Source of the DNA: Candidatus Micrarchaeota archaeon
GTDB lineage: Archaea > Micrarchaeota > Micrarchaeia > Micrarchaeales > CABMGC01
Assembly (NCBI GenBank): GCA_027371545.1
Contig: DAHXMW010000001.1
Span: 9,378-73,377, forward strand
DNA length: 64,000 bases
Direction: 5' to 3'
The first letter of the stretch is position 1, and every line of letters starts with the position of its first letter. Of this stretch, positions 978 through 42,185 are shown piece after piece. The position numbers and the translations under genes are program-made. Below the pieces are notes generated by a model that made no database searches, had not been told where the DNA came from, and worked only from the letters and a program-made list of their open reading frames with translations.

Positions 978-1079
978 CAGTGTAAATAATCAGACCCTGT
1001 ATCCAGATATAAAACTAATGCTGTCAAGTTTTATAAACTAATACTTGAAATTGTCTCTATACAGCAAAATAGTGATTTT

Positions 1080-1544
1080 TTGGTAGCATTAAACGATAAA
1101 GCTCCGGACTTCAATCTTCCAGGCTCTGATGGGAAAAAGCATTCGCTTAAGGAATTTGCAGGAAGGTATTTGGTAATATACTTCTATCCAAAGGACGATA
1201 CCCCAGGATGCACCGTCGAAGCGATAGGCTTTACAAAAGCCCTTGAAGATCTACGTACAATGGGGTGCGAGGTCGTAGGCATAAGCAGCGACGACGAAAG
1301 ATCTCACCTTAGATTCTGCGAAAAGCGCAGCCTAAAGCATCTGCTTTTATCAGACGAGTCGCATGAGACCATAAAAGCTTATGGTGCTTACGGGAGCCGC
1401 GGCATTTTTGGGATGGGGACGCAGCGGAAGACATACATACTGGATGGCACAGGGACGGTGATAAAGATATTCGAAAAGGTAAATCCAAAAGGCCATGAGA
1501 AAGAGATACTTGATTTCATAGAAAGCGCGCAGAAAAAGAGGTAA
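1080..1544 (+). CDS. bcp: thiol peroxidase / peroxiredoxin, Bcp type
   Basis: 'APDFNLPGSDGKKHSLKEFAGRYLVIYFYPKDDTPGCTVEA' carries the peroxidatic Cys motif (TPGCT). TTG start. Confidence 0.9.
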   Translation: MVALNDKAPDFNLPGSDGKKHSLKEFAGRYLVIYFYPKDDTPGCTVEAIGFTKALEDLRTMGCEVVGISSDDERSHLRFCEKRSLKHLLLSDESHETIKAYGAYGSRGIFGMGTQRKTYILDGTGTVIKIFEKVNPKGHEKEILDFIESAQKKR

Positions 1545-4097: not shown

Positions 4098-5408
4098 ATG
4101 GATACAAACAATAAAGCGCTCGAGCTACATAAGCGCAGCAAGGGCAAGATAGAGATAATCCCAAAAGTGCCACTTAGCAATTCAGATGAACTCTCCGAGT
4201 TCTATACTCCTGGTGTAGCATCAGTATCAAACGCTATAAGCGCAGAGCCTGAGAAAGCATACGAGTATACCTCAAAATCTAATATGGTCGCAATAGTATC
4301 AGACGGAACGCGGGTCCTTGGCCTTGGAAATGTAGGTCCGGAAGCAGCAATTCCAGTAATGGAAGGGAAATCTGCAATATTTAAGAGGTTTGGCGGGATA
4401 GATGCCGTGCCGATATGCATAGCAGAGAGGGACGAAGAGAAGATAATAGGTCTGGTAAAGGCCATCTCCCCGTCTTTTGGGGCAATAAACATAGAGGATA
4501 TTGAGTCACCAAAGTGCTTCAGGATACTCGAGAGGCTTCAGAAGGAGCTCGATATACCTGTCTTCCACGATGACCAGCAGGGTACCGCTGCAGTTGTTCT
4601 TGGCGGGATAATCAACTCACTAAAGCTTTCAGGGAAGGGAAAAGGCTCAAAGATTGTAATACTCGGTGCGGGCGCCGCAGGCTATGGAATTGCAAGGCTG
4701 CTTCTCACGCGTGGCTTCAGTAATATAATTGTTGTAGATTCAAGCGGTGCAATATACAAAGGCCGCAAGGAAGACATGACTCCAGAAAAGGTGCGAATAG
4801 CCGAGGCCACAAACAAGGGAATGTTCACAGGCTCGCTTGACAGCGCAATGGAAGGTGCAGATATATTCATTGGGGTCTCATCAAAAGGCAAGATAACAAA
4901 GGAGAACATAAGCAGCATGGCCGAGAGGCCTATAGTGTTTGCCCTATCAAATCCATACCCAGAAATAAGCTATGAAGATGCGGTAGACGCAGGCGCTTTC
5001 ATAGTAGCTACTGGAAGAAGCGATAAACCAAACCAGGTAAACAACCTCCTCGCTTTTCCAGGAATCGTAAGGGGGCTGCTGGAGACTAGGGCACATGCAA
5101 TAACGGAAAACACTTTACTGGCAGCAGCAGAAGAGATAGCGCACTCGGTAGGAAAGAATCTAGCTGCAGAACACATACTGCCAAGGATCGGAGACAGAGG
5201 CTTCGAGACCTCTGTAGCGCCCAAGGTTGCCGCTGCAGTAGCAGAGGCAACAGTATCACAGGGATTGTCAAGGATAAAGGTAAGCAGGGATGAAGTGCTC
5301 TCATCAGCAAGGTCTGCAATCAGGCGCTATATTAGAATAGAGGCCAAGCTTGTAAAGAAAGGATTCTATGAGAGAGAAGGTAATCCCATGGAACGCAGCA
5401 AAGCCTGA
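4098..5408 (+). CDS. NAD(P)-dependent malic enzyme (oxaloacetate-decarboxylating malate dehydrogenase)
   Basis: 'YTPGVA', 'VSDGTRVLGLGNVGPEAAIPVMEGK', 'FHDDQQGTAAV' and 'GAGAAG' Rossmann motifs are typical of short prokaryotic malic enzymes. Confidence 0.85.
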   Translation: MDTNNKALELHKRSKGKIEIIPKVPLSNSDELSEFYTPGVASVSNAISAEPEKAYEYTSKSNMVAIVSDGTRVLGLGNVGPEAAIPVMEGKSAIFKRFGGIDAVPICIAERDEEKIIGLVKAISPSFGAINIEDIESPKCFRILERLQKELDIPVFHDDQQGTAAVVLGGIINSLKLSGKGKGSKIVILGAGAAGYGIARLLLTRGFSNIIVVDSSGAIYKGRKEDMTPEKVRIAEATNKGMFTGSLDSAMEGADIFIGVSSKGKITKENISSMAERPIVFALSNPYPEISYEDAVDAGAFIVATGRSDKPNQVNNLLAFPGIVRGLLETRAHAITENTLLAAAEEIAHSVGKNLAAEHILPRIGDRGFETSVAPKVAAAVAEATVSQGLSRIKVSRDEVLSSARSAIRRYIRIEAKLVKKGFYEREGNPMERSKA

Positions 5409-6649: not shown

Positions 6650-7081
6650 TTACTTCGCATTAACCCCAAGCAGCGCCACATCTGCGGCACTGCCCTCGTG
6701 AAATTTAAGATCCAAGAATCGGCGTATAATAACACCGTTCTCTCTTGCAAAAGTCTCAATACTTTCCCTTCTGTCAGAGAAGACCAGGAAGTCTCCTGCG
6801 TCATTAACGCTACACTCGGATAAGGCCTCATCTATCCTGTCGCTTCCGCTTATGAATAGCATCATCTCTATATTTACGTTACCAGAAGCCATTCCGCCTT
6901 CGCTAAGCCTAACATATGCATTCAGATACGATGGCAGAAGGCGTTCCAGAAACTCCTCCTTGTTCTTAAGGAGCAGCATAAATCGCCCTTTTCCGAAAGA
7001 AGAAGCAGCTCCCTTCAACTTTTCAGCATCAACCTCGGAAGTGCATTCTGCAGCGCATCCTGGGCCAACGGGATCCATCAA
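6650..7081 (-). CDS. KEOPS complex subunit Cgi121-like
   Basis: The pattern 'IEMMLFISGSDRIDEALSECSVNDAGDFLVFSDRRESIETF' parallels archaeal Cgi121 ('MEILVRASGQRQIHEAIKIIG..DGNVCLICEDEETF'). Confidence 0.55.
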   Translation of the reverse strand: MMDPVGPGCAAECTSEVDAEKLKGAASSFGKGRFMLLLKNKEEFLERLLPSYLNAYVRLSEGGMASGNVNIEMMLFISGSDRIDEALSECSVNDAGDFLVFSDRRESIETFARENGVIIRRFLDLKFHEGSAADVALLGVNAK

Positions 7082-7200: not shown

Positions 7201-7596
7201 ATGAGCCAGTTCGGATCACAACTCCATTCAAGCTCCTCAAGGAAATTGTCAGGGAGCGGGAAGAAGAGGAACAAGAACAAGGATAAAAAGCGACATGAGA
7301 TGGGGGGATACTTTTCCGCTACAAAGCTAGGCGCAGAGAACAGCCACAAGAAAGTAAGAGGAAGGGGCGGATCGCTTAAGGATAAGCTCAAATACGCGGC
7401 AACAGTAAACCTGCTTACAAAAAGCGGATATAAGAAGACCAAGATAAAAGCAGTAGTCGAATCAAAAGACAACCGCAACTTCGCAAGGCTCAACGTCATA
7501 ACCAAGGGGTCTGTAATAGATACGGATCTAGGCAAGGCTGTGGTAACTAGCAGGCCCGGAAGCAGTGCAGTAATAAACGCGCGGCTGATAGAGTAA
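7201..7596 (+). CDS. rps8e: 30S ribosomal protein S8e (eS8)
   Basis: 'SRKLSGSGKKRNKNKDKKRHEMGG', basic N-terminus, '...VVTSRPGSSAVINARLIE'. ATG at 7201 preferred over the upstream GTG at 7192. Confidence 0.85.
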   Translation: MSQFGSQLHSSSSRKLSGSGKKRNKNKDKKRHEMGGYFSATKLGAENSHKKVRGRGGSLKDKLKYAATVNLLTKSGYKKTKIKAVVESKDNRNFARLNVITKGSVIDTDLGKAVVTSRPGSSAVINARLIE

Positions 7597-7980
7597 GGTG
7601 ATGCAATAAGCGCAGTTGTCTATTCTTGCAGCGCGGCAGACGCGGAGAAGCTCAGGCATATCCTCTCATACGACCCATATCTTGACAAATCCATCTCCGC
7701 TGAGAAGCTAAGTGAGATAAAAAAGGACAACTCTGCGAATGTCATATTTGCCAGGCAGGATTATCAACTCAAGGATGGGGTATCTCTTGGGCTTGACAGG
7801 GAGAAATATTACCTTTATATATCAGCAACAGACGAATTCCTCTCAGAAGCAGATAAGAAACTCAAGCAGGAGATACCAAGCATAGAGAAGGTGGATGCTG
7901 CCTTAACGGACAGGATTGTATCAGAACTGGACAAGGAAAGGTCGATGAGCGAGCACGGCCTCGGCCTTATTTTCGGTTAG
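7597..7980 (+). CDS. unannotated 127-codon open frame lacking a canonical start; hypothetical protein ending in 'GLGLIFG'
   Basis: Uninterrupted frame from the S8e TAA stop (7594-7596) to TAG at 7978-7980, in the same frame as S8e. The first in-frame GTG/ATG occur only in the last ~38/~12 codons. GGTGAT (7597-7602) precedes an ATA at 7606. The translation looks protein-like. Confidence 0.45.
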   Translation, partial: GDAISAVVYSCSAADAEKLRHILSYDPYLDKSISAEKLSEIKKDNSANVIFARQDYQLKDGVSLGLDREKYYLYISATDEFLSEADKKLKQEIPSIEKVDAALTDRIVSELDKERSMSEHGLGLIFG

Positions 7981-7990
7981 GCGGTGCCGG

Positions 7991-8890
7991 ATGAACCTGA
8001 CCAAGATTACAAGGCTCTCCGCAAATGAGATAAATAATATATTCGACATCTCCGACGCAATAAAATCTGGCAGGCAAACGGCAGCCATGGAAAGGAAAGT
8101 CTTGGCTCTGCTTTTCGAAAAGCCTTCCACAAGGACCCGCGTCTCTTTTGAGGCTGCGATGGCTAGGCTGGGCGGAAGCTCAATATACATAGACAAAAAT
8201 ACATCACAGCTCTCCAGGGGTGAGACTATCGGCGATACTGCAATGGTGCTGAGCCAGTATGTCGATTTCATAGCTGCAAGGATGTATAAGCAGCAAGATC
8301 TGGAAGATCTTGCATCTTCATCCACAGTGCCTGTAATAAACGCGCTTACTGATCTGGAGCACCCATGCCAGGCCATAAGCGATATGTACACGATGAGGGA
8401 GAAGGCAGGTGCGCTCGGAGGGAAAAAACTTGCGTTTGTAGGTGATATAGCCGCAAACACTGCAAACTCGCTTCTGGTAGGATGCACGACCATGGGTATG
8501 CAGGTTACCTTGGTGGGGCCTGAAGGCTGCAAGCCAAACGCCGAGTATCTATCGATAGCGAAGAAGAGGGGTACCGTGGAAGTCACTGTAGACATGCAAC
8601 ATGGCTTAGAAAGCGCCGATTTCATATATACCGATACGTTTGTGAGCATGGGACAGGAGGCTGAGGCAGAGAAGCGGAAAGCAGAATTCAGGGAATTCCA
8701 GCTTAATACCCGTGCGCTCTCTTATGCAAAGAAGACAGCTTTAGTGATGCATTGTCTCCCTGCCCACAGGGGCGAGGAGATAACATCTGATGTTCTAGAT
8801 GGAAAGAGGAGCATAGTTGCCCTTCAGGCAAAGAACAAGATGATAGTGGAAGGTGCTATCCTAATCCATCTTTCCCAAAATAATGGTTGA
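7991..8890 (+). CDS. argF: ornithine carbamoyltransferase
   Basis: 'FEKPSTRTRVSFEAA', 'HPCQA', 'FVSMGQE' and 'HCLPAHRGEE' motifs. Confidence 0.85.
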   Translation: MNLTKITRLSANEINNIFDISDAIKSGRQTAAMERKVLALLFEKPSTRTRVSFEAAMARLGGSSIYIDKNTSQLSRGETIGDTAMVLSQYVDFIAARMYKQQDLEDLASSSTVPVINALTDLEHPCQAISDMYTMREKAGALGGKKLAFVGDIAANTANSLLVGCTTMGMQVTLVGPEGCKPNAEYLSIAKKRGTVEVTVDMQHGLESADFIYTDTFVSMGQEAEAEKRKAEFREFQLNTRALSYAKKTALVMHCLPAHRGEEITSDVLDGKRSIVALQAKNKMIVEGAILIHLSQNNG

Positions 8891-27021: not shown

Positions 27022-27858
27022 ATGATTAGGAAGCCGTATGTTGCAGGCAGCTTCTATCCGCGCCAAAAGGCATCGTTGGAAAAAATGGTATTCTCGATGC
27101 TGTCAGACGCAGGGGAGCAGGAATGGGTTAGCAAAGGTACCAATGCGTTCATAACTCCTCATGCTGGAATATCCTACTCAGGAAAGACTGCGGCGTTCAC
27201 CTATGCCGCAATAGCGTCAAGGCTTAATAAAAAGGATGCAGACACTATAATAATTATAGGGCCTAATCACACTGGAATTGGCAATGAGATATCGCTCTCA
27301 GAGGCGACATGGGAGACTCCTATGGGAAAGTTTGACACTGATTTAGATATGGTAGAAGAGATACAGCGTTATGACGATAAGATATCGATTGACGAAGATG
27401 CTCACCGCATGGAGCATTCAATAGAGGTACAACTTCCATTCCTTTCCGCAGTAGCACCGAAAAAAAGCCTTATATGCGTATGCATGGGCATACAGTCATA
27501 CTACAACTCAAAGCTTATCGCAGAGGCAGTATTACACTCTGCAGAAAAAAACAATAGAGAGGCGATAACCATTGCAAGCTCTGATCTCAACCATTACGAG
27601 CCAGCACCTGTAGCATATATGCGCGATAAGCCGCTGATACGTGCGATAAAGGCGGCGGATCCTGACGGATTCTACAGGAGTGTCGAGGAATCTGGAAACA
27701 GTGCGTGCGGATACGGCCCTATAGCATCCGCAATGCTGATCTCAAAATCCCTAGGTGCAAAGAAGGGCATGGTACTAAATTATTCGAATTCAGGAAATTC
27801 TTCAACAGAAAATGATCACGGTGTAGTTTCATACATCAGTGCAGCATTCACAGATTAA
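27022..27858 (+). CDS. MEMO1-family protein (AmmeMemoRadiSam system protein B-like)
   Basis: 'KPYVAGSFYP', 'ITPHAGISYSG', 'GPNHTG', 'EHSIEVQLPFL'. Confidence 0.8.
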   Translation: MIRKPYVAGSFYPRQKASLEKMVFSMLSDAGEQEWVSKGTNAFITPHAGISYSGKTAAFTYAAIASRLNKKDADTIIIIGPNHTGIGNEISLSEATWETPMGKFDTDLDMVEEIQRYDDKISIDEDAHRMEHSIEVQLPFLSAVAPKKSLICVCMGIQSYYNSKLIAEAVLHSAEKNNREAITIASSDLNHYEPAPVAYMRDKPLIRAIKAADPDGFYRSVEESGNSACGYGPIASAMLISKSLGAKKGMVLNYSNSGNSSTENDHGVVSYISAAFTD

Positions 27859-27869
27859 AAGGCGGTGAA

Positions 27870-29369
27870 ATGACAGGAAAAAAATCAAGAAAACTGATTA
27901 TAATCGGAATAGACTCTGCGCCGCTGTGGCTTCTTAAGAAGTTCTCCGCAGAGCATGATAAAAAAGACGGATTCTCCGAGGTATTTGGCTTTGGGAAGCG
28001 GGGCGTAATTGACCTCGAATCAACAATTCCTCCAATGACAGGTGCAGCATGGCCAAGTTTCTATACTGGGCTCCAACCTTCAAAGCATGGCTCTATGGAC
28101 TTCTTTGTGCTTGACAGACACTATACAAAGCAGCTTGTATACTTTGACAACTCAAAAGGGGCGTTTTGGGATATCCTGGGAAGACGGGGATTTGAAAGTT
28201 TCATAATAACTCCGCCTATGGCTGTCTCCCCAAGCAGCGAAAAGAATGTTCAGATGATGTCCGGCTGGCCTCTAGCCCCGCGATTCAGTTCCAATAAAAT
28301 AGAGAAATACGCGAAGAAAAGCAGCTTTGCAGGGGAGCCTGAGATAGAAAGGGAACTAAAGGAAGGGCGGATAACATTGGAGGAAGCGTCAACGCAGTAT
28401 ACAGCTAGCGCTAGGGCAAGGGCCAGGATGACAATGGAAATAGCAAAGCACGAGGATTTCGATCTGCTATTCTCATGCTTCACCGAGACGGACAGAATGC
28501 AGCACTATTCTCTTAACAATCAGAAGTGGGAGAACTACGTAATGCCAATATACTATGTAATATCTGAGGCGATAAGCGAACTTTACAAGTATGCATCGGG
28601 CAATTACGATGACTTTGCCATTATGATTGTTTCTGATCATGGCGCCCAGCCGATACGCTCAAAATTCCTCATTAATTCTTGGCTTATACGCGAGGGATAT
28701 GCCAACCTGAAGAAAAGCGTAGAAGAAAAATACAACTCCCAAAAAAGTAGCCCTGATGCGAGATATAAGATAAGAGAAATGCTGATGAGGAGCAAACTAA
28801 GAAAGGTTTACGATAAAATGCCAGGGAAGATTCACAACGCTGCGTACAGGGTTGCGGGAAGTTTGCTTTCAGGCGCATCAGCAGGAAGCTACACGCGCAT
28901 ACACGATTTTGATTTCGATATGAGGCGTACAAAGGCATTCGCATCAGTATCAAACGGGCCAATCAGCATGATATGGGTAAATGATTCAAGATTCGACATG
29001 CCTTCAGTTGAAAGACCATCTAAAGGCAAGATCAAGTCAGAGATTAAGAGAAGGCTGATGGGAATAAGGTCAATGGGAAATGGCGTCATTGCAAACGTTA
29101 TAGACGGCGAAGACTATTACGGAAAGAATCCTGCATTCATAGCCCCTGATCTTCTCATCGAGGCAGAAAGAGGATTCACGATAGACGTATTCAACTATTC
29201 AAATACGTCTTTTTACATGAAACCGGAGATCTCAAGGAGCGGTGACCATCAGCGGCATGGCATATTCGCCGTCAGGAGCAGATCAAAAAATGCAAGATGG
29301 CCAGGCAGAGGAGCATGGATAGGGGATATAAACGAATATATCCTGGAGTTTTTCAATTCTAGGCGATAA
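27870..29369 (+). CDS. alkaline-phosphatase-superfamily enzyme (type I phosphodiesterase/nucleotide pyrophosphatase-like, Thr nucleophile)
   Basis: 'IIIGIDSAPLW', 'TIPPMTGAAWPSFYTGLQPSKHG', 'VSDHGA'. Confidence 0.65.
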   Translation: MTGKKSRKLIIIGIDSAPLWLLKKFSAEHDKKDGFSEVFGFGKRGVIDLESTIPPMTGAAWPSFYTGLQPSKHGSMDFFVLDRHYTKQLVYFDNSKGAFWDILGRRGFESFIITPPMAVSPSSEKNVQMMSGWPLAPRFSSNKIEKYAKKSSFAGEPEIERELKEGRITLEEASTQYTASARARARMTMEIAKHEDFDLLFSCFTETDRMQHYSLNNQKWENYVMPIYYVISEAISELYKYASGNYDDFAIMIVSDHGAQPIRSKFLINSWLIREGYANLKKSVEEKYNSQKSSPDARYKIREMLMRSKLRKVYDKMPGKIHNAAYRVAGSLLSGASAGSYTRIHDFDFDMRRTKAFASVSNGPISMIWVNDSRFDMPSVERPSKGKIKSEIKRRLMGIRSMGNGVIANVIDGEDYYGKNPAFIAPDLLIEAERGFTIDVFNYSNTSFYMKPEISRSGDHQRHGIFAVRSRSKNARWPGRGAWIGDINEYILEFFNSRR

Positions 29370-29371
29370 CA

Positions 29372-30430
29372 ATGAAAGTATATCTGCTAGGTGGGCAAGG
29401 GCGCTTCGATAATTCATCAGGGGAAGGGGTATCCACCTATATGTACGAGATATACAGGGGCCTTAAGTCAAACAAAGGCATTAAAGCCAGCAAGATCGAG
29501 TATCCAATAAGGGACAGGACAGGAGGTGCATACTCGTGGTTCCGCATGGCAGTCATCGCTTCATTCAGCGATTATAGCCATGCAGACATAATCCACAAAG
29601 TTGACGTAAAGCCAATAAATCCTGTTAGAAAAGGCGCTGCAAAGATTGTCTCTACGGCGCATGACTTCCAGCCCCTCCTCGAGCCTGCTCTTGACTCGGA
29701 TATGTCTACTTCGCTAAAGGGGAGAATCCGACTTGCGCTTGAGACCAGATACTCCCTCAGGCTTATGCTCAAATCCGATTATCTGCTCGCAAACTCCACG
29801 CTCACAAAGAACGACGCCGTAAAGCTGGGCTTTGAGGGCAGCAGAACATTCGTGATAAACCATGGCATAGACAAGGCCTACATGTCTAACATGCCACGCA
29901 AAAAGGCTGGAAAAAAGTATGTTGTAGGATACATCGGAGCATTCAGGTCACGCAAAAATGTGGGGTTTGCAATACGCGCATTCAAAATGACATCTCAGAA
30001 AAACCTGGAGTTCAGGCTTTGGGGCAACAAGAGATATGAATACGAAAAGCTTGAATCTGCCGCAAGCGATGACAAGCGCATATATTTCATGGGCTTCGCT
30101 CCAGCGCAAAAGATAGTGGAAACATATGACAGCTTTGATGCATTTGTCTTCCCTAGCCTTTACGAAGGAATGGGGTATGAGATACTAGAAGCAAAAGCCA
30201 GAGGTTTGCCGGTAATAATATACAAGCATGCAAAGATACCCGAGGAAGTAAGGCGCTACTGCATAGAGGTTAAAGACGAGGGCGCAATGGCCGACGCCAT
30301 CGAGAATCTATGCTCTAACGGCCCAGACGATAGCATCATCTCCAAGGCTATGCGCGACGCTAGAAATTTCACATGGGAGAAGACAGTATCTAAAACAATA
30401 GAAGCATATGAAGAGATACGCGAAGCCTAG
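29372..30430 (+). CDS. GT-B glycosyltransferase (family 4/1-like)
   Basis: The C-terminal half 'FVFPSLYEGMGYEILEAKARGLPVI' carries the EX7E-type motif. Confidence 0.75.
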   Translation: MKVYLLGGQGRFDNSSGEGVSTYMYEIYRGLKSNKGIKASKIEYPIRDRTGGAYSWFRMAVIASFSDYSHADIIHKVDVKPINPVRKGAAKIVSTAHDFQPLLEPALDSDMSTSLKGRIRLALETRYSLRLMLKSDYLLANSTLTKNDAVKLGFEGSRTFVINHGIDKAYMSNMPRKKAGKKYVVGYIGAFRSRKNVGFAIRAFKMTSQKNLEFRLWGNKRYEYEKLESAASDDKRIYFMGFAPAQKIVETYDSFDAFVFPSLYEGMGYEILEAKARGLPVIIYKHAKIPEEVRRYCIEVKDEGAMADAIENLCSNGPDDSIISKAMRDARNFTWEKTVSKTIEAYEEIREA

Positions 30431-31635
30431 TATATTACGCCTATACCTGCAAACTTTCCGGAATCATAAATAAGAAACCTTCCCATCTCTGGACACTCTG
30501 CAGCGCTCTCTATAACTGTGCTTTTCGAAAGCCTGACTTTTGCCTTTCCTGTGCCTAACGGCTTAATAGAGCCTGCTTTCATAATCATCCCGCTCTTCAG
30601 ATCCATCTCGCCGAATACAGAGATATCCGCCATTAGCTCAATGCCATTCATCCTTATCTGCACTTTTTTAGGTATCCTACTCACAGAAAACATCATTGCC
30701 TCAAATTCTGTACCGCACCTGGGATTGCTTTTAAGATCAAATCCCACGCATCCGCGGGTTGCAGATGCTCCTGACATTTCCAGTGCCACATTATTTCCTT
30801 CCGAAGCAACACCCCTCTCTTTTCCCTTGACATATATTGATTTAACCTGCGCGTCTTTTCCAAGAGGCATAATGCGCATCTTCTGCCCTCCTCTCAATTT
30901 CCCGGTTATCAACTTACCGGTATATAATGTCTTCTTTCCGCTCCTTATGCTTCCCTGGAACAAGAGCCTCAGCACCTGGTTACCTTCCTTTTTAGCAGAT
31001 GTTGCCTCATAAATAAGGTTCATTAGCGGCTTGCCCATATACCATCCAATGCGCGCAGAGCGCTTTACAAGATTATCTGCTTTATATGCAGATACAGGTA
31101 CAAAGCTTATCGAACTCTGTTCAAAACCTATATTCATACAGAATTCCCGTACAGAATCCCTGATAAGTTCAAACTTCTCCTTTCTATATTCAATAGCGTC
31201 CATCTTGTTTACTGCTACTACTACTCTCCTTATCCCAAGCAGTTTCGCCAGTACGAGGTGTCTCCTTGTCTGCTCCGTTATCCCTTCTCCGTCCTTCGCA
31301 GAGACCATAAGCACGGCAAAATCCCCATAAGATGCGCCGCTTATCATATTGCCTATAAGCTCTTCGTGGCCTGGAACATCTATAAATTCGAAAGCAGCGT
31401 CCTTATAAGTAATCTGTGCCCTTGTGGTGTCTATCGTCAGTCCGCCTTCACGCTCCTCCTCAAAGCTATCTAGTATGAAACCTGGCTCAAAGTTCCTTCC
31501 TAGTTTCCTGCTTACGTTTTTTGCCTCTTCAATCCTCTGTTTTGTTGCAGACCCTGTGGCTATAAGGAGGCTTCCTATCAGAGTAGATTTGCCATGATCC
31601 TTATTTCCCAGAAGGGTAACCCTTTTGATGTCCAA
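30427..31635 (-). CDS. CysN-like translational-type GTPase (putative sulfate adenylyltransferase subunit 1; no APS-kinase domain)
   Basis: G1 'GNKDHGKST', G2 'GGLTIDT', G3 'DVPGHEE', G4 'NKMD', G5 'VSAY', plus two beta-barrel domains. TTG start preceded by AGGTG. Directly downstream of CysD. Confidence 0.65.
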   Translation of the reverse strand: MDIKRVTLLGNKDHGKSTLIGSLLIATGSATKQRIEEAKNVSRKLGRNFEPGFILDSFEEEREGGLTIDTTRAQITYKDAAFEFIDVPGHEELIGNMISGASYGDFAVLMVSAKDGEGITEQTRRHLVLAKLLGIRRVVVAVNKMDAIEYRKEKFELIRDSVREFCMNIGFEQSSISFVPVSAYKADNLVKRSARIGWYMGKPLMNLIYEATSAKKEGNQVLRLLFQGSIRSGKKTLYTGKLITGKLRGGQKMRIMPLGKDAQVKSIYVKGKERGVASEGNNVALEMSGASATRGCVGFDLKSNPRCGTEFEAMMFSVSRIPKKVQIRMNGIELMADISVFGEMDLKSGMIMKAGSIKPLGTGKAKVRLSKSTVIESAAECPEMGRFLIYDSGKFAGIGVIY

Positions 31636-31643
31636 ACAAGCAC

Positions 31644-32432
31644 CTACATATATCCAAGCGCCCTTAACTTCTCCATAACATATGCTTTCTCCTTGTCCTG
31701 CTCTCTCCCTGCTCTCTCTTCAGTCTCCGTTACCTTGAGCTCACCCATTATCTGCTTGACGCTCTTTGCATTTGATTTTACGGGAACTGTGCAATGCGTA
31801 CATCCAAGGCTTCTATACCTATATCCGTTGCTGGAATAATAAAGCGGATTTACTGGCACCTTCATCTTCATTGTATACTGCCATATATCTATCTCATTCC
31901 AATCGAGTATCGGATGAACGCGTATATGCCCTTTCGTATCCATCTTGGAGGAATAGTTGTTCCAAAGCTCAGCTGGCTGGTCCTTGTAATTCCACTTGAA
32001 CTCAGTATCCCTTGGGCTAAAGTACCTTTCCTTTGCCCTTATTCCATGCTCGTCCCTGCGTATTGATACGATAAGCGCATCAAATCCGTGCTCTTTCATA
32101 ACTTCCTTTAGTGCATCTGTCTTGTTAGACCCGCAGCAACTGAATCCGGAAAGCTCCGGTTTTATCCTACTCTTAGCAACTATCAACTCCAGGCCCCATT
32201 TTTTAGCTAAGTCGTCCCTGAACTTATAAGTTTCCGGGAAGTCTATTCCGTTGTCTATATGTATCACGGGAAAAGGCACCTTTCCTAGAAACGCCCTTCG
32301 CGCTATCATTATCATTGCAGTGGAGTCCTTGCCGCCCGACCACAGCGCAGCAACATTCTCAAACTTCTCCTTTGTCTCGCGTATTATATACGCACTCTTC
32401 TCTTCCAACTCGCCTATATTCTGCATTATCAT
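31644..32432 (-). CDS. cysD: CysD-like PP-loop ATP pyrophosphatase (putative sulfate adenylyltransferase subunit 2)
   Basis: PP-loop 'LWSGGKDS', 'RRDEHGIRAKERYFSPRD', 'RYRSLGCTHCT', and the C-terminal block 'ERAGREQDKEKAYVMEKLRALGYM' collinear with E. coli CysD '...[24 protein letters not shown]'. Confidence 0.8.
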   Translation of the reverse strand: MIMQNIGELEEKSAYIIRETKEKFENVAALWSGGKDSTAMIMIARRAFLGKVPFPVIHIDNGIDFPETYKFRDDLAKKWGLELIVAKSRIKPELSGFSCCGSNKTDALKEVMKEHGFDALIVSIRRDEHGIRAKERYFSPRDTEFKWNYKDQPAELWNNYSSKMDTKGHIRVHPILDWNEIDIWQYTMKMKVPVNPLYYSSNGYRYRSLGCTHCTVPVKSNAKSVKQIMGELKVTETEERAGREQDKEKAYVMEKLRALGYM

Positions 32433-41609: not shown

Positions 41610-42068
41610 TCAGTCACTCTTTATAAGCAGTGCAACCTTATCGGGTTCGTATTTCCAGTCAGAAGGGAGGTCACCAATCCTCTTGTAATATTTGGAAAGC
41701 CTCCATATCTTCGCTTCTATCCTGTTTAGCCTTGTCTTGTTGTGTACGTCATTGTGGTTCGTCTTAAGGTGATTTCTCAGCCCTACAGCTCTCTTGAGCA
41801 GGTCCATGAAATCCTGCGGCAACTCTGCCTTCTCATCCACATCAGCGAGTATCTCCTTGAGTCGCTTTCCGGTAGCGCTCTTAACATAAGGCACTCCGTG
41901 CTTCTCCTTCAATACCTGGCCTATCATGGCGTGATGCATTCCTTGTTTTGCGTACTCCTTCACGAGCTTGCGTATCTCCTTCTCGTCTATCTGGGCTTCC
42001 GCGGTAGTTGCAGAAAAGACCTTTCTTGACTTTGATTTACCCTTCTTCCTTGTATGCATTCTAGCCAA
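41610..42068 (-). CDS. rps15: 30S ribosomal protein S15 (uS15/S13e)
   Basis: 'MARMHTRKKGKSKS', 'DFMDLLKRAVGLRNHLKTNHNDVHNKTRLNRIEAKIWRLSKYY'. Confidence 0.9.
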   Translation of the reverse strand: MARMHTRKKGKSKSRKVFSATTAEAQIDEKEIRKLVKEYAKQGMHHAMIGQVLKEKHGVPYVKSATGKRLKEILADVDEKAELPQDFMDLLKRAVGLRNHLKTNHNDVHNKTRLNRIEAKIWRLSKYYKRIGDLPSDWKYEPDKVALLIKSD

Positions 42069-42185
42069 TATAACACCAAAACTAACGTAGCAGCTAATGA
42101 TTACTAAATTATACAGATATTTAATACAGATAATATTAAAAGCCTTGCTGACATGAATCCGCGCCTGCAGAATATCGCAAAAAGC

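Follow-up and report, generated by a model that had tools for sequence, protein, structure and literature searches.

The stretch of DNA analyzed here, hereafter called the window, comprises 64,000 nucleotides (nt) of a Candidatus Micrarchaeota archaeon (contig DAHXMW010000001.1, positions 9,378 to 73,377). On its plus strand lies a gene for ribosomal protein S8e (positions 7201 to 7596), which was identified by Pfam PF01201 (E value of 1.7 × 10−24) and by TIGR00307 (91.6 bits, above the cut-off). As a preliminary description of the window had pointed out, the reading frame of S8e stays open for 127 codons beyond its TAA stop codon (7594 to 7596), up to a TAG at 7978 to 7980. The S8e stop codon is abutted by the sequence GGTGAT (7597 to 7602), a Shine-Dalgarno (SD) site complementary to the usual archaeal 16S rRNA 3′ end, whose GGTG core ends 5 nt before an in-frame ATA (7606 to 7608). 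Both of these elements were likewise found where the preliminary description had placed them. Our analysis revealed that positions 7606 to 7980 (plus strand) constitute a real, functional, and previously unannotated gene, a conclusion based on homologues, on the ratio of nonsynonymous to synonymous substitution rates (dN/dS), and on an AlphaFold2 model. The explanation that accounts best for the locus as a whole, and that we consider very probable, is that of a missed functional gene that starts at AUA 7606 behind GGTGAT, always follows S8e, and encodes a protein of 124 amino acids (aa) with a C-terminal tail resembling that of the archaeal ribosomal stalk protein aP1. Downstream, a further GGTG SD site and an ATG at 7991, both read from the sequence (7983 to 7993, plus strand), precede the next cistron, pyrB, which encodes an aspartate/ornithine carbamoyltransferase (7991 to 8890, plus strand; Pfam OTCace_N and OTCace). 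The same gene order after the new gene was found in the sister species.

The open frame itself had been put forward as improbably long, with a chance expectation below 1%. This estimate is correct for the given site, where the probability of 127 sense codons is 1.2 × 10−3, but not for the window as a whole, since about 6.5 such frames are expected in a shuffled sequence of 64 kb. The length of the frame is therefore weak evidence, and it is homology that settles the reality of the gene. A search with the translation, which had been quoted correctly together with its ...EHGLGLIFG C terminus, retrieved 122 database homologues with E values down to 6 × 10−61, all of them "hypothetical proteins" of Micrarchaeota or "Marsarchaeota" metagenome-assembled genomes (MAGs). 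The Micrarchaeota homologues are approximately 124 aa long, or approximately 154 to 160 aa when they carry an insertion. In a scan of one genome per species, the gene was encoded by 114 genomes labeled as Micrarchaeota, Marsarchaeota, or uncultured archaeon, with the single exception of a MAG titled "bacterium" (L059). S8e was located immediately upstream of the gene in 80 of the 80 species-level Micrarchaeota loci that we fetched. Conservation also extends to the codon level: in comparisons with two sister species (90 to 92% aa identity), dN/dS was 0.04 to 0.05 at a dS of approximately 1, the same as for S8e.

Where translation begins is less obvious from the window. In line with the preliminary description, the frame contains no early canonical start codon. 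The first in-frame GTG, however, lies at 7891, 29 codons before the stop and not approximately 38 as had been described, and the second canonical start is an ATG at 7945, 11 codons before the stop. According to our best reading of the comparative data, translation of the new gene starts at AUA 7606. When the N terminus of the window protein (I-S-A-V-V-Y-S-C) was aligned with that of the family (M-P-A-R-V-Y-x-C), ATA 7606 coincided with the Met codon of the family. Whether the orthologues start with AUG had been posed as a question, and the answer is divided: among 81 loci, the codon at the start position is ATG in 39, ATA in 24, ATT in 5, ATC in 3, TTG in 6, GTG in 1, and another codon in 3, so that 32 loci carry AUA, AUU, or AUC (collectively AUH). 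On a quick neighbor-joining (NJ) tree of S8e and the new protein, Fitch parsimony required at least 16 state changes at this position, and the AUH start codons fell into 11 separate clades.

Several features of the AUH loci support initiation at this very codon. In two of them (L048 and L085), an in-frame TGA stands immediately 5′ of ATA, and in two others (L033 and L050), a stop codon lies 3 codons upstream with no canonical start in between. In the window and in L010, L066, and L074, the following canonical start occurs 54 to 95 codons downstream of the AUH position. Codons 2 to 9 (P-A-R-V-Y-x-C-D) show the same degree of conservation in the AUH class as in the ATG class, while synonymous codons vary freely within the AUH class; each of the six Arg codons occurs, as do TAC and TAT. 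Codons 2 to 19 displayed a dN/dS of 0.16 within AUH clades, indicating purifying selection. In the window these codons (7609 to 7662, plus strand) correspond to strand b1 and helix a1 of the modeled fold, and both elements would be removed by a start later than AUH, at Met20. Together, these data place the N terminus of the protein either at the AUH codon or immediately beside it. The N-terminal peptide expected from the AUA start is (M)SAVVYSCSAADAEK, and that of the relatives is (M)PAR-VY.

A far later start would leave only a short C-terminal peptide, initiated at GTG 7891 or ATG 7945, with the remainder of the frame untranslated. These two codons are indeed the only canonical in-frame starts. 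Neither of them is preceded by an SD site, however, and codons 1 to 95, which precede any canonical start in the window, showed a dN/dS of 0.036 to 0.045 and hold all the invariant motifs as well as the whole globular fold. We regard a short peptide as extremely improbable. An equally dim view can be taken of the proposal that a sequencing or assembly error destroyed an ATG or that the gene is a decaying pseudogene. It would account for the lack of a canonical start over 95 codons and for the fact that the gene is missing from the protein database for this genome; in a database of 5.8 billion clusters, the window's protein was absent and its best match was 93% identical. Such an absence is, nevertheless, what would be expected if no gene caller could call the gene. 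Eight independent assemblies of a sister species, obtained from different samples and differing from the window elsewhere, carry exactly the junction TAAGGTGATGCAATAAGC, and L009 shares it as well; L010 keeps ATA and GGTGAT, and these species are separated from the window by a dS of approximately 1. Moreover, all the invariant motifs are intact, and 31 further species carry ATA, ATT, or ATC at the same position. It was on the grounds of the identical junctions in independent assemblies, together with the dN/dS of 0.04, that we rejected error and decay.

The AUA start also explains how the gene has been treated in public annotations. In AUH lineages, public gene calls begin at the internal Met20 (M-x-YDPYLD) and yield proteins of 105 to 107 aa that omit codons 2 to 19. 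In approximately 40% of the Micrarchaeota species, the 19 N-terminal residues are cut off or, as here, the gene is missed wholly, because its start is AUA and not AUG. The public picture of the family is thus wrong. Among 64 long open frames in the window, the new gene is the sole one without a canonical start near its 5′ end. Three other frames, at 990 to 1544 (plus strand), 30427 to 31719 (minus strand), and 41610 to 42185 (minus strand), have their first canonical start 28 to 39 codons in, and two of them show GGTG-TTG there.

We then asked whether AUH starts are a general property of these genomes. At the loci analyzed, the S8e start codon is ATG in 78 of 80 cases and GTG in 1, and pyrB starts with ATG in 39, TTG in 9, and GTG in 1; AUH was found for neither gene, and the AUH start is therefore specific to the new gene. 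Reassignment of ATA to Met was rejected, since the invariant Ile47 of the new protein is encoded by ATA in 54, ATC in 21, and ATT in 2 of 77 loci, that is, ATA encodes this Ile and interchanges with ATC and ATT. A search of the entire window for AUA starts yielded no second case. The preliminary description had likened the junction to the ggcGGTGAaATG context of the gene at 27870; this context is real, but the GGTG-ATA candidate at 27831 belongs to a noncoding leader before the normal ATG at 27870. At the junction itself, no RNA structure was predicted (z score of −0.02) and no Rfam family was found. A scan for bacterial-type promoters and terminators found nothing, and such a scan is not applicable to archaea.

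The start codon covaries strongly with the SD site. GGTG is present 5 to 6 nt upstream of the start in 32 of 32 AUH loci vs 2 of 39 ATG loci (Fisher P value of 3.5 × 10−18), and the split persisted when counted by clade (11 of 11 AUH vs 1 of 17 ATG; P value of 5.6 × 10−7). The predicted SD duplex was stronger in the AUH class, with an energy of −8.1 kcal/mol vs −5.7 kcal/mol in the ATG class (P value of 2 × 10−7). Near-cognate initiation of the new gene at AUA is, on the best reading, driven by the SD site. In 76 of 81 loci, the S8e stop and the start are separated by −4 to +10 nt, and the SD site sits at or within the end of S8e. This is the geometry of coupled gene pairs, for which termination-reinitiation has been described over a range of approximately −8 to +10 nt of overlap or distance (PMC10666635), with the SD site being important for reinitiation within this range (PMC10666635, PMC7531240). 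Initiation of the new gene is thus probably coupled to termination of S8e. In two loci, L048 (at ~4001) and L070 (at ~520), the S8e stop codon TAG overlaps ATA as ATAG, which represents an AUA version of the classic 4-nt ATGA overlap known from coupled genes.

In the mechanism that we propose, GGTGAT would hold the small ribosomal subunit, or a ribosome fresh from S8e termination, such that the P site is occupied by AUA. Despite a mismatch at the third position, this codon would be read by the initiator tRNA, and the protein would presumably begin with Met. A strong SD site or the coupling may compensate for the weak AUH codon, so that AUG with a weak SD site and AUA, AUU, or AUC with a strong GGTG site would be roughly equivalent, interchangeable states that have been swapped many times.

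The position of S8e directly upstream allows a different reading, in which read-through of the S8e TAA yields an S8e fusion and no ribosome initiates within the frame itself. In its favor, 18 loci, the window among them, have an in-frame S8e stop codon that precedes the start position by 9 nt (in rare cases by 0 or 12 nt). These in-frame cases consist of the stop, GGTGNT, and 3 nt, however, and the 9 nt are conserved as an SD site and not as codons. In the remaining 63 of 81 loci S8e is out of frame, as is also evident from the ATAG overlaps in L048 and L070, which put the S8e TAG into another frame, and in L048 and L085 the TGA directly 5′ of ATA would block a fusion. With S8e in frame in 18 of 81 loci only and with stop codons intervening before ATA, read-through was rejected as having next to no likelihood. 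In a second scenario, ribosomes initiate at the GTG within the SD site or at ATG 7601 and then reach the ATA frame by frameshifting or by reinitiating once more. The window does contain an out-of-frame mini-open reading frame (GTG-ATG-CAA-TAA, 7598 to 7609) whose TAA (7607 to 7609) overlaps ATA throughout the window clade, and the GTG of the SD site is in frame, at −9, in 8 AUH loci whose spacing is 6 nt. Yet the mini-frame is confined to the window clade. The other AUH loci whose spacing is 5 nt have an out-of-frame GTG and conserve neither the ATG of the mini-frame nor its overlapping stop (e.g., L017). Furthermore, a GTG paired to 16S rRNA as part of the SD site cannot also fill the P site, and ATG 7601 has zero spacing from the SD site. 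This scenario is very unlikely, if slightly less so than the others. The rejected set (ALTERNATIVES) thus comprises read-through, error or decay, the short peptide, and the out-of-frame mini-frame; of the three options raised in the preliminary description, only initiation at AUA 7606 behind GGTGAT survived, with strong comparative support, while read-through and error or decay did not.

Several points weigh against initiation at AUA and should be noted. The evidence for a start at 7606 is comparative sequence evidence throughout. In the 8 AUH loci mentioned above, the in-frame GTG inside the SD site, 3 codons upstream, could serve as an alternative start. The anti-SD sequence used for the duplex energies is a generic archaeal one and was assumed, as the window contains no 16S rRNA. 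Reviews name no archaeal start codons other than AUG, GUG, and UUG (PMC7531240), and in Escherichia coli, ATT retains approximately 0.3% of the activity of ATG (PMC10666635), because of which the efficiency of the AUA start may be low. Near-cognate sites were seen, and set aside, in ribosome profiling of Haloferax (PMC7261190). Our search of the literature for AUA or AUU starts in archaea, the coverage of which was incomplete, found nothing relevant.

Other near-cognate codons may be used for the new gene, too. The start position is ACG in L075 (at 4001) and GTA in L064 (at 4001). In L075, the first canonical start occurs 18 codons in (+54 nt), whereas L064 has an in-frame ATG 24 nt upstream, inside the end of S8e, that could be the start instead. 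A gene without a canonical start was also observed in L057 (3277 to 3966, plus strand), where an amino-acid-kinase gene follows the new gene. Its frame opens after a TGA with ACG AAG AAA..., encoding the conserved N terminus TKKTVCISIGG, and the first in-frame ATG, GTG, or TTG comes 99 codons in, which possibly reflects a noncanonical start or an indel.

The AlphaFold2 model of the window protein (predicted local distance difference test score [pLDDT] of 89 and predicted template modeling score [pTM] of 0.79) gave the order b1 (residues 2 to 9), a1 (10 to 21), an inserted helix, b2, b3, a2, and b4, followed by a long helix (residues 98 to 118) and a tail modeled with low confidence. The domain, as modeled, belongs to the ferredoxin-like b-a-b-b-a-b class, and a modeled distant relative of 97 aa has the same core. 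Two motifs occupy invariant columns of an alignment of 80 Micrarchaeota sequences, Y-D-P-Y-L-D (residues 22 to 27; 7669 to 7686) and I-F-A-R-Q-D (residues 47 to 52; 7744 to 7761), the latter beginning with Ile47, encoded here by ATA. The long helix (7897 to 7959) becomes acidic toward its end, and the probably flexible tail G-L-G-L-I-F-G (residues 118 to 124) is encoded at 7957 to 7977, all on the plus strand.

Searches for known relatives placed the protein in a fold class only. Foldseek searches of the PDB with the two confident models returned generic ferredoxin-like matches with E values of at least 0.02, namely PII, PstA, CutA, ACT, KH, and the N-terminal domain of V-ATPase subunit a/I. 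The last of these shares the topology and also has a long helix after it (E values of 0.02 to 0.1; TM scores of 0.4 to 0.55), while PII, PstA, CutA, and ACT have the b-a-b-b-a-b topology in common with the new protein, a likeness of fold class only. With none of these small domains was there a significant match, sequence similarity, or a common ligand-binding motif. A profile search of PDB sequences retrieved no relative, and searches of Pfam and NCBIfam assigned neither the window protein nor any of 10 distant relatives to a family. Nor did we find support for a relation to aEF1B: hhalign gave a probability of 0.08% against an aEF1B sequence, which is a weak test, and aEF1B was not among the top Foldseek matches. 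An exhaustive profile search of 1.84 billion representative sequences found 160 relatives, many of them approximately 97 to 107 aa long and without the insertion, and some labeled as Aenigmarchaeota or Hydrothermarchaeota. The one non-Micrarchaeota relative whose start was inspected, in L090, begins with a canonical GTG. Tandem-duplicated family members of 175 to 195 aa with two ferredoxin-like domains were observed as well (P0229, P0244, P0270, and P0277); P0229 and P0244, the two for which we read the sequence, have the stalk-like tail on the second domain only.

The C-terminal tail is the best-conserved feature of the whole superfamily. In the 80-sequence alignment, G118, G120, and F123 do not vary and conservation of G124 is 90% or higher, and 321 of 337 family proteins end with G-Φ-G-x-Φ-F-(G), where Φ is a hydrophobic residue, at most 4 residues from the C terminus. 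Nearly all members carry 2 to 4 Asp or Glu residues among the 8 residues before the motif. The resemblance to the aP1 tail, to which the preliminary description had drawn attention, was borne out in exact C-terminal register: hhalign placed the last 11 profile positions on aP1 residues 98 to 108 (EALAGLSALFG) and aligned nothing else. This segment forms the tail of Pyrococcus horikoshii aP1, in which G102, L103, L106, and F107 are needed for binding of aEF1A and aEF2 and the carboxylate of the terminal Gly forms a salt bridge to aEF1A (PMC5887453, PMC4267659). The window sequence MSEHGLGLIFG matches G102, L103, L106 (as Ile), F107, and G108 in register, the equivalents of L103, L106, and F107 being L119, I122, and F123. 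In sequence, then, the tail matches all the aP1 residues needed for aEF1A and aEF2 binding. The tail of one relative also weakly matched the aP0 C terminus in NCBIfam PRK04019 (E value of 0.015, below the cut-off).

Like aP1, the new protein is small and acidic, and in common with aP1 and the C terminus of aP0 it has an acidic helical stretch that leads into G-L-[SG]-x-[LI]-F-G at its extreme end. Unlike aP1, whose all-helical N-terminal dimerization domain binds aP0, it has a ferredoxin-like a/b domain, lacks the Ala/Pro/Glu low-complexity hinge of the aP1 type, gives no PF00428 match, and is encoded behind S8e. We conclude that it lies outside the aP1 family, from which it is set apart by its domain as well as by the family model. 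Canonical aP1 or aP0 was not found in the window or in the loci examined, where the only candidate was a dubious open reading frame resembling the aP1 N-terminal domain. This long frame (L045, 1 to 690, minus strand) runs off the locus and has no Pfam match and no obvious start codon. Its segment APYLIGAMLLSKVGTEINYENLKSLLDSAGIK shares 47% identity with an aP1 N-terminal domain sequence across 34 aa (tblastn E value of 7.6 × 10−6 in a small local database), and further similar repeats seem to be present by eye. The new protein might in principle replace aP1, although aP1 is commonly considered to be present in all archaea.

The register of the match suggests that the tail may bind aEF1A, aEF2, aIF5B, or the ATPase ABCE1. 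More tentatively, and with odds that we put somewhat below even, the globular domain with its YDPYLD and IFARQD motifs might anchor the protein to a partner while its flexible tail, like that of aP1, would fit into the hydrophobic grooves on translational GTPases or on ABCE1. The tail would then be presented to these factors by a protein acting either as an extra recruiting arm, anchored by its globular domain, or, in soluble form, as a competitor or escort. It is also conceivable, if rather doubtful, that Micrarchaeota and, more distantly, other archaea possess an unrecognized class of free-standing "stalk-tail" proteins that serve, beside the ribosomal stalk, as a second arm recruiting or sequestering factors, with a dose that in Micrarchaeota would be tied to ribosome production through the coupling to S8e and tuned by an evolutionarily stable AUH start.

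A serious competitor, to which we assign a chance just short of even, accepts the gene and its AUA start but denies that the tail mimics the stalk; the tail would have another role, such as oligomerization, binding of a different partner, or a degradation signal, and its likeness to aP1 would be convergent. The match is short, covering a motif of 7 to 11 residues, and with a pairwise hhalign E value of 0.064 it is not significant alone; there is no match to Pfam Ribosomal_60s, and synteny with a ribosomal gene is limited to Micrarchaeota. On the other hand, the motif is the best-conserved part of its superfamily, whose members are otherwise approximately 25 to 30% identical, it occupies the extreme C terminus after an acidic helix as in aP1, and every residue that mutagenesis of aP1 showed to be important is matched. 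Some distant members, ending in SGISLF or TGLSLFE, are nearer still to aP1. Along with the E value, three further points count against a factor-docking function. The structural searches retrieved only the generic matches described above; the genes of relatives outside Micrarchaeota are next to neither S8e nor a translation-related or consistent neighbor; and the aP1 tail used for comparison was that of P. horikoshii, a different organism. Of the aP1 and aEF1B comparison sequences, only the 11 C-terminal residues of aP1 have been checked against a published sequence (PMC5887453). A literature search of incomplete coverage found nothing on this family or on an archaeal or DPANN nonstalk protein with a stalk-like tail.

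The new protein belongs to an uncharacterized family. Bacterial infC, encoding IF3, has a nearly universal AUU start that serves IF3 autoregulation. The new gene resembles infC in that a particular gene keeps a near-cognate AUH start over a long evolutionary time. It differs in that AUU is near-universal in infC, whereas the AUH codon of the new gene, in an archaeon, alternates with AUG and is always paired with a stronger SD site, which points to compensation and not to a demonstrated regulatory loop. The locus likewise resembles the gene pairs coupled by termination-reinitiation (Huber et al. 2019 and 2023; PMC6728339, PMC10666635), in that the upstream stop lies −4 to +10 nt from the start and the SD site lies in the end of the upstream gene. 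The described pairs, however, start with AUG, GUG, or UUG, and for the new gene coupling is suggested by geometry.

If the AUA start is true, it would represent the first well-supported near-cognate initiation fixed in an archaeal lineage and a concrete, testable case of such initiation in archaea. Having switched between AUG and AUA, AUU, or AUC at least 10 times, the gene also offers a natural experiment on compensation between the start codon and the SD site. Should the tail dock factors, recruitment of aEF1A, aEF2, or aIF5B would not be exclusive to the stalk, and the tail peptide, along with the known aP1 mutants, makes this idea directly testable.

Across the whole 64-kb window, no tRNA genes and no Rfam families at the gathering threshold were found. 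Upstream of S8e, the window contains a divergent 143-aa open reading frame (6650 to 7081, minus strand) with subthreshold matches to the KEOPS subunit Cgi121 (Pfam E value of 0.0026 and NCBIfam E value of 0.0064); its counterpart in the sister species is a conserved 142-aa gene without a Pfam match. One protein of 171 aa (P0253) combines an N terminus like that of this Cgi121-like protein with the helix and a GLGFIFGG tail of the new family at its C terminus, and it may represent a real fusion or an assembly or frameshift artifact. Finally, upstream of the Aenigmarchaeota-type relative in L090 (4700 to 4960), ARAGORN identified a tRNA-Thr(CGT) at 4801 to 4889, which lies in a longer tRNA-like stretch that begins with GCCTCGGTAGCTCAGCC at ~4716 and may include a second, intron-containing or split tRNA.

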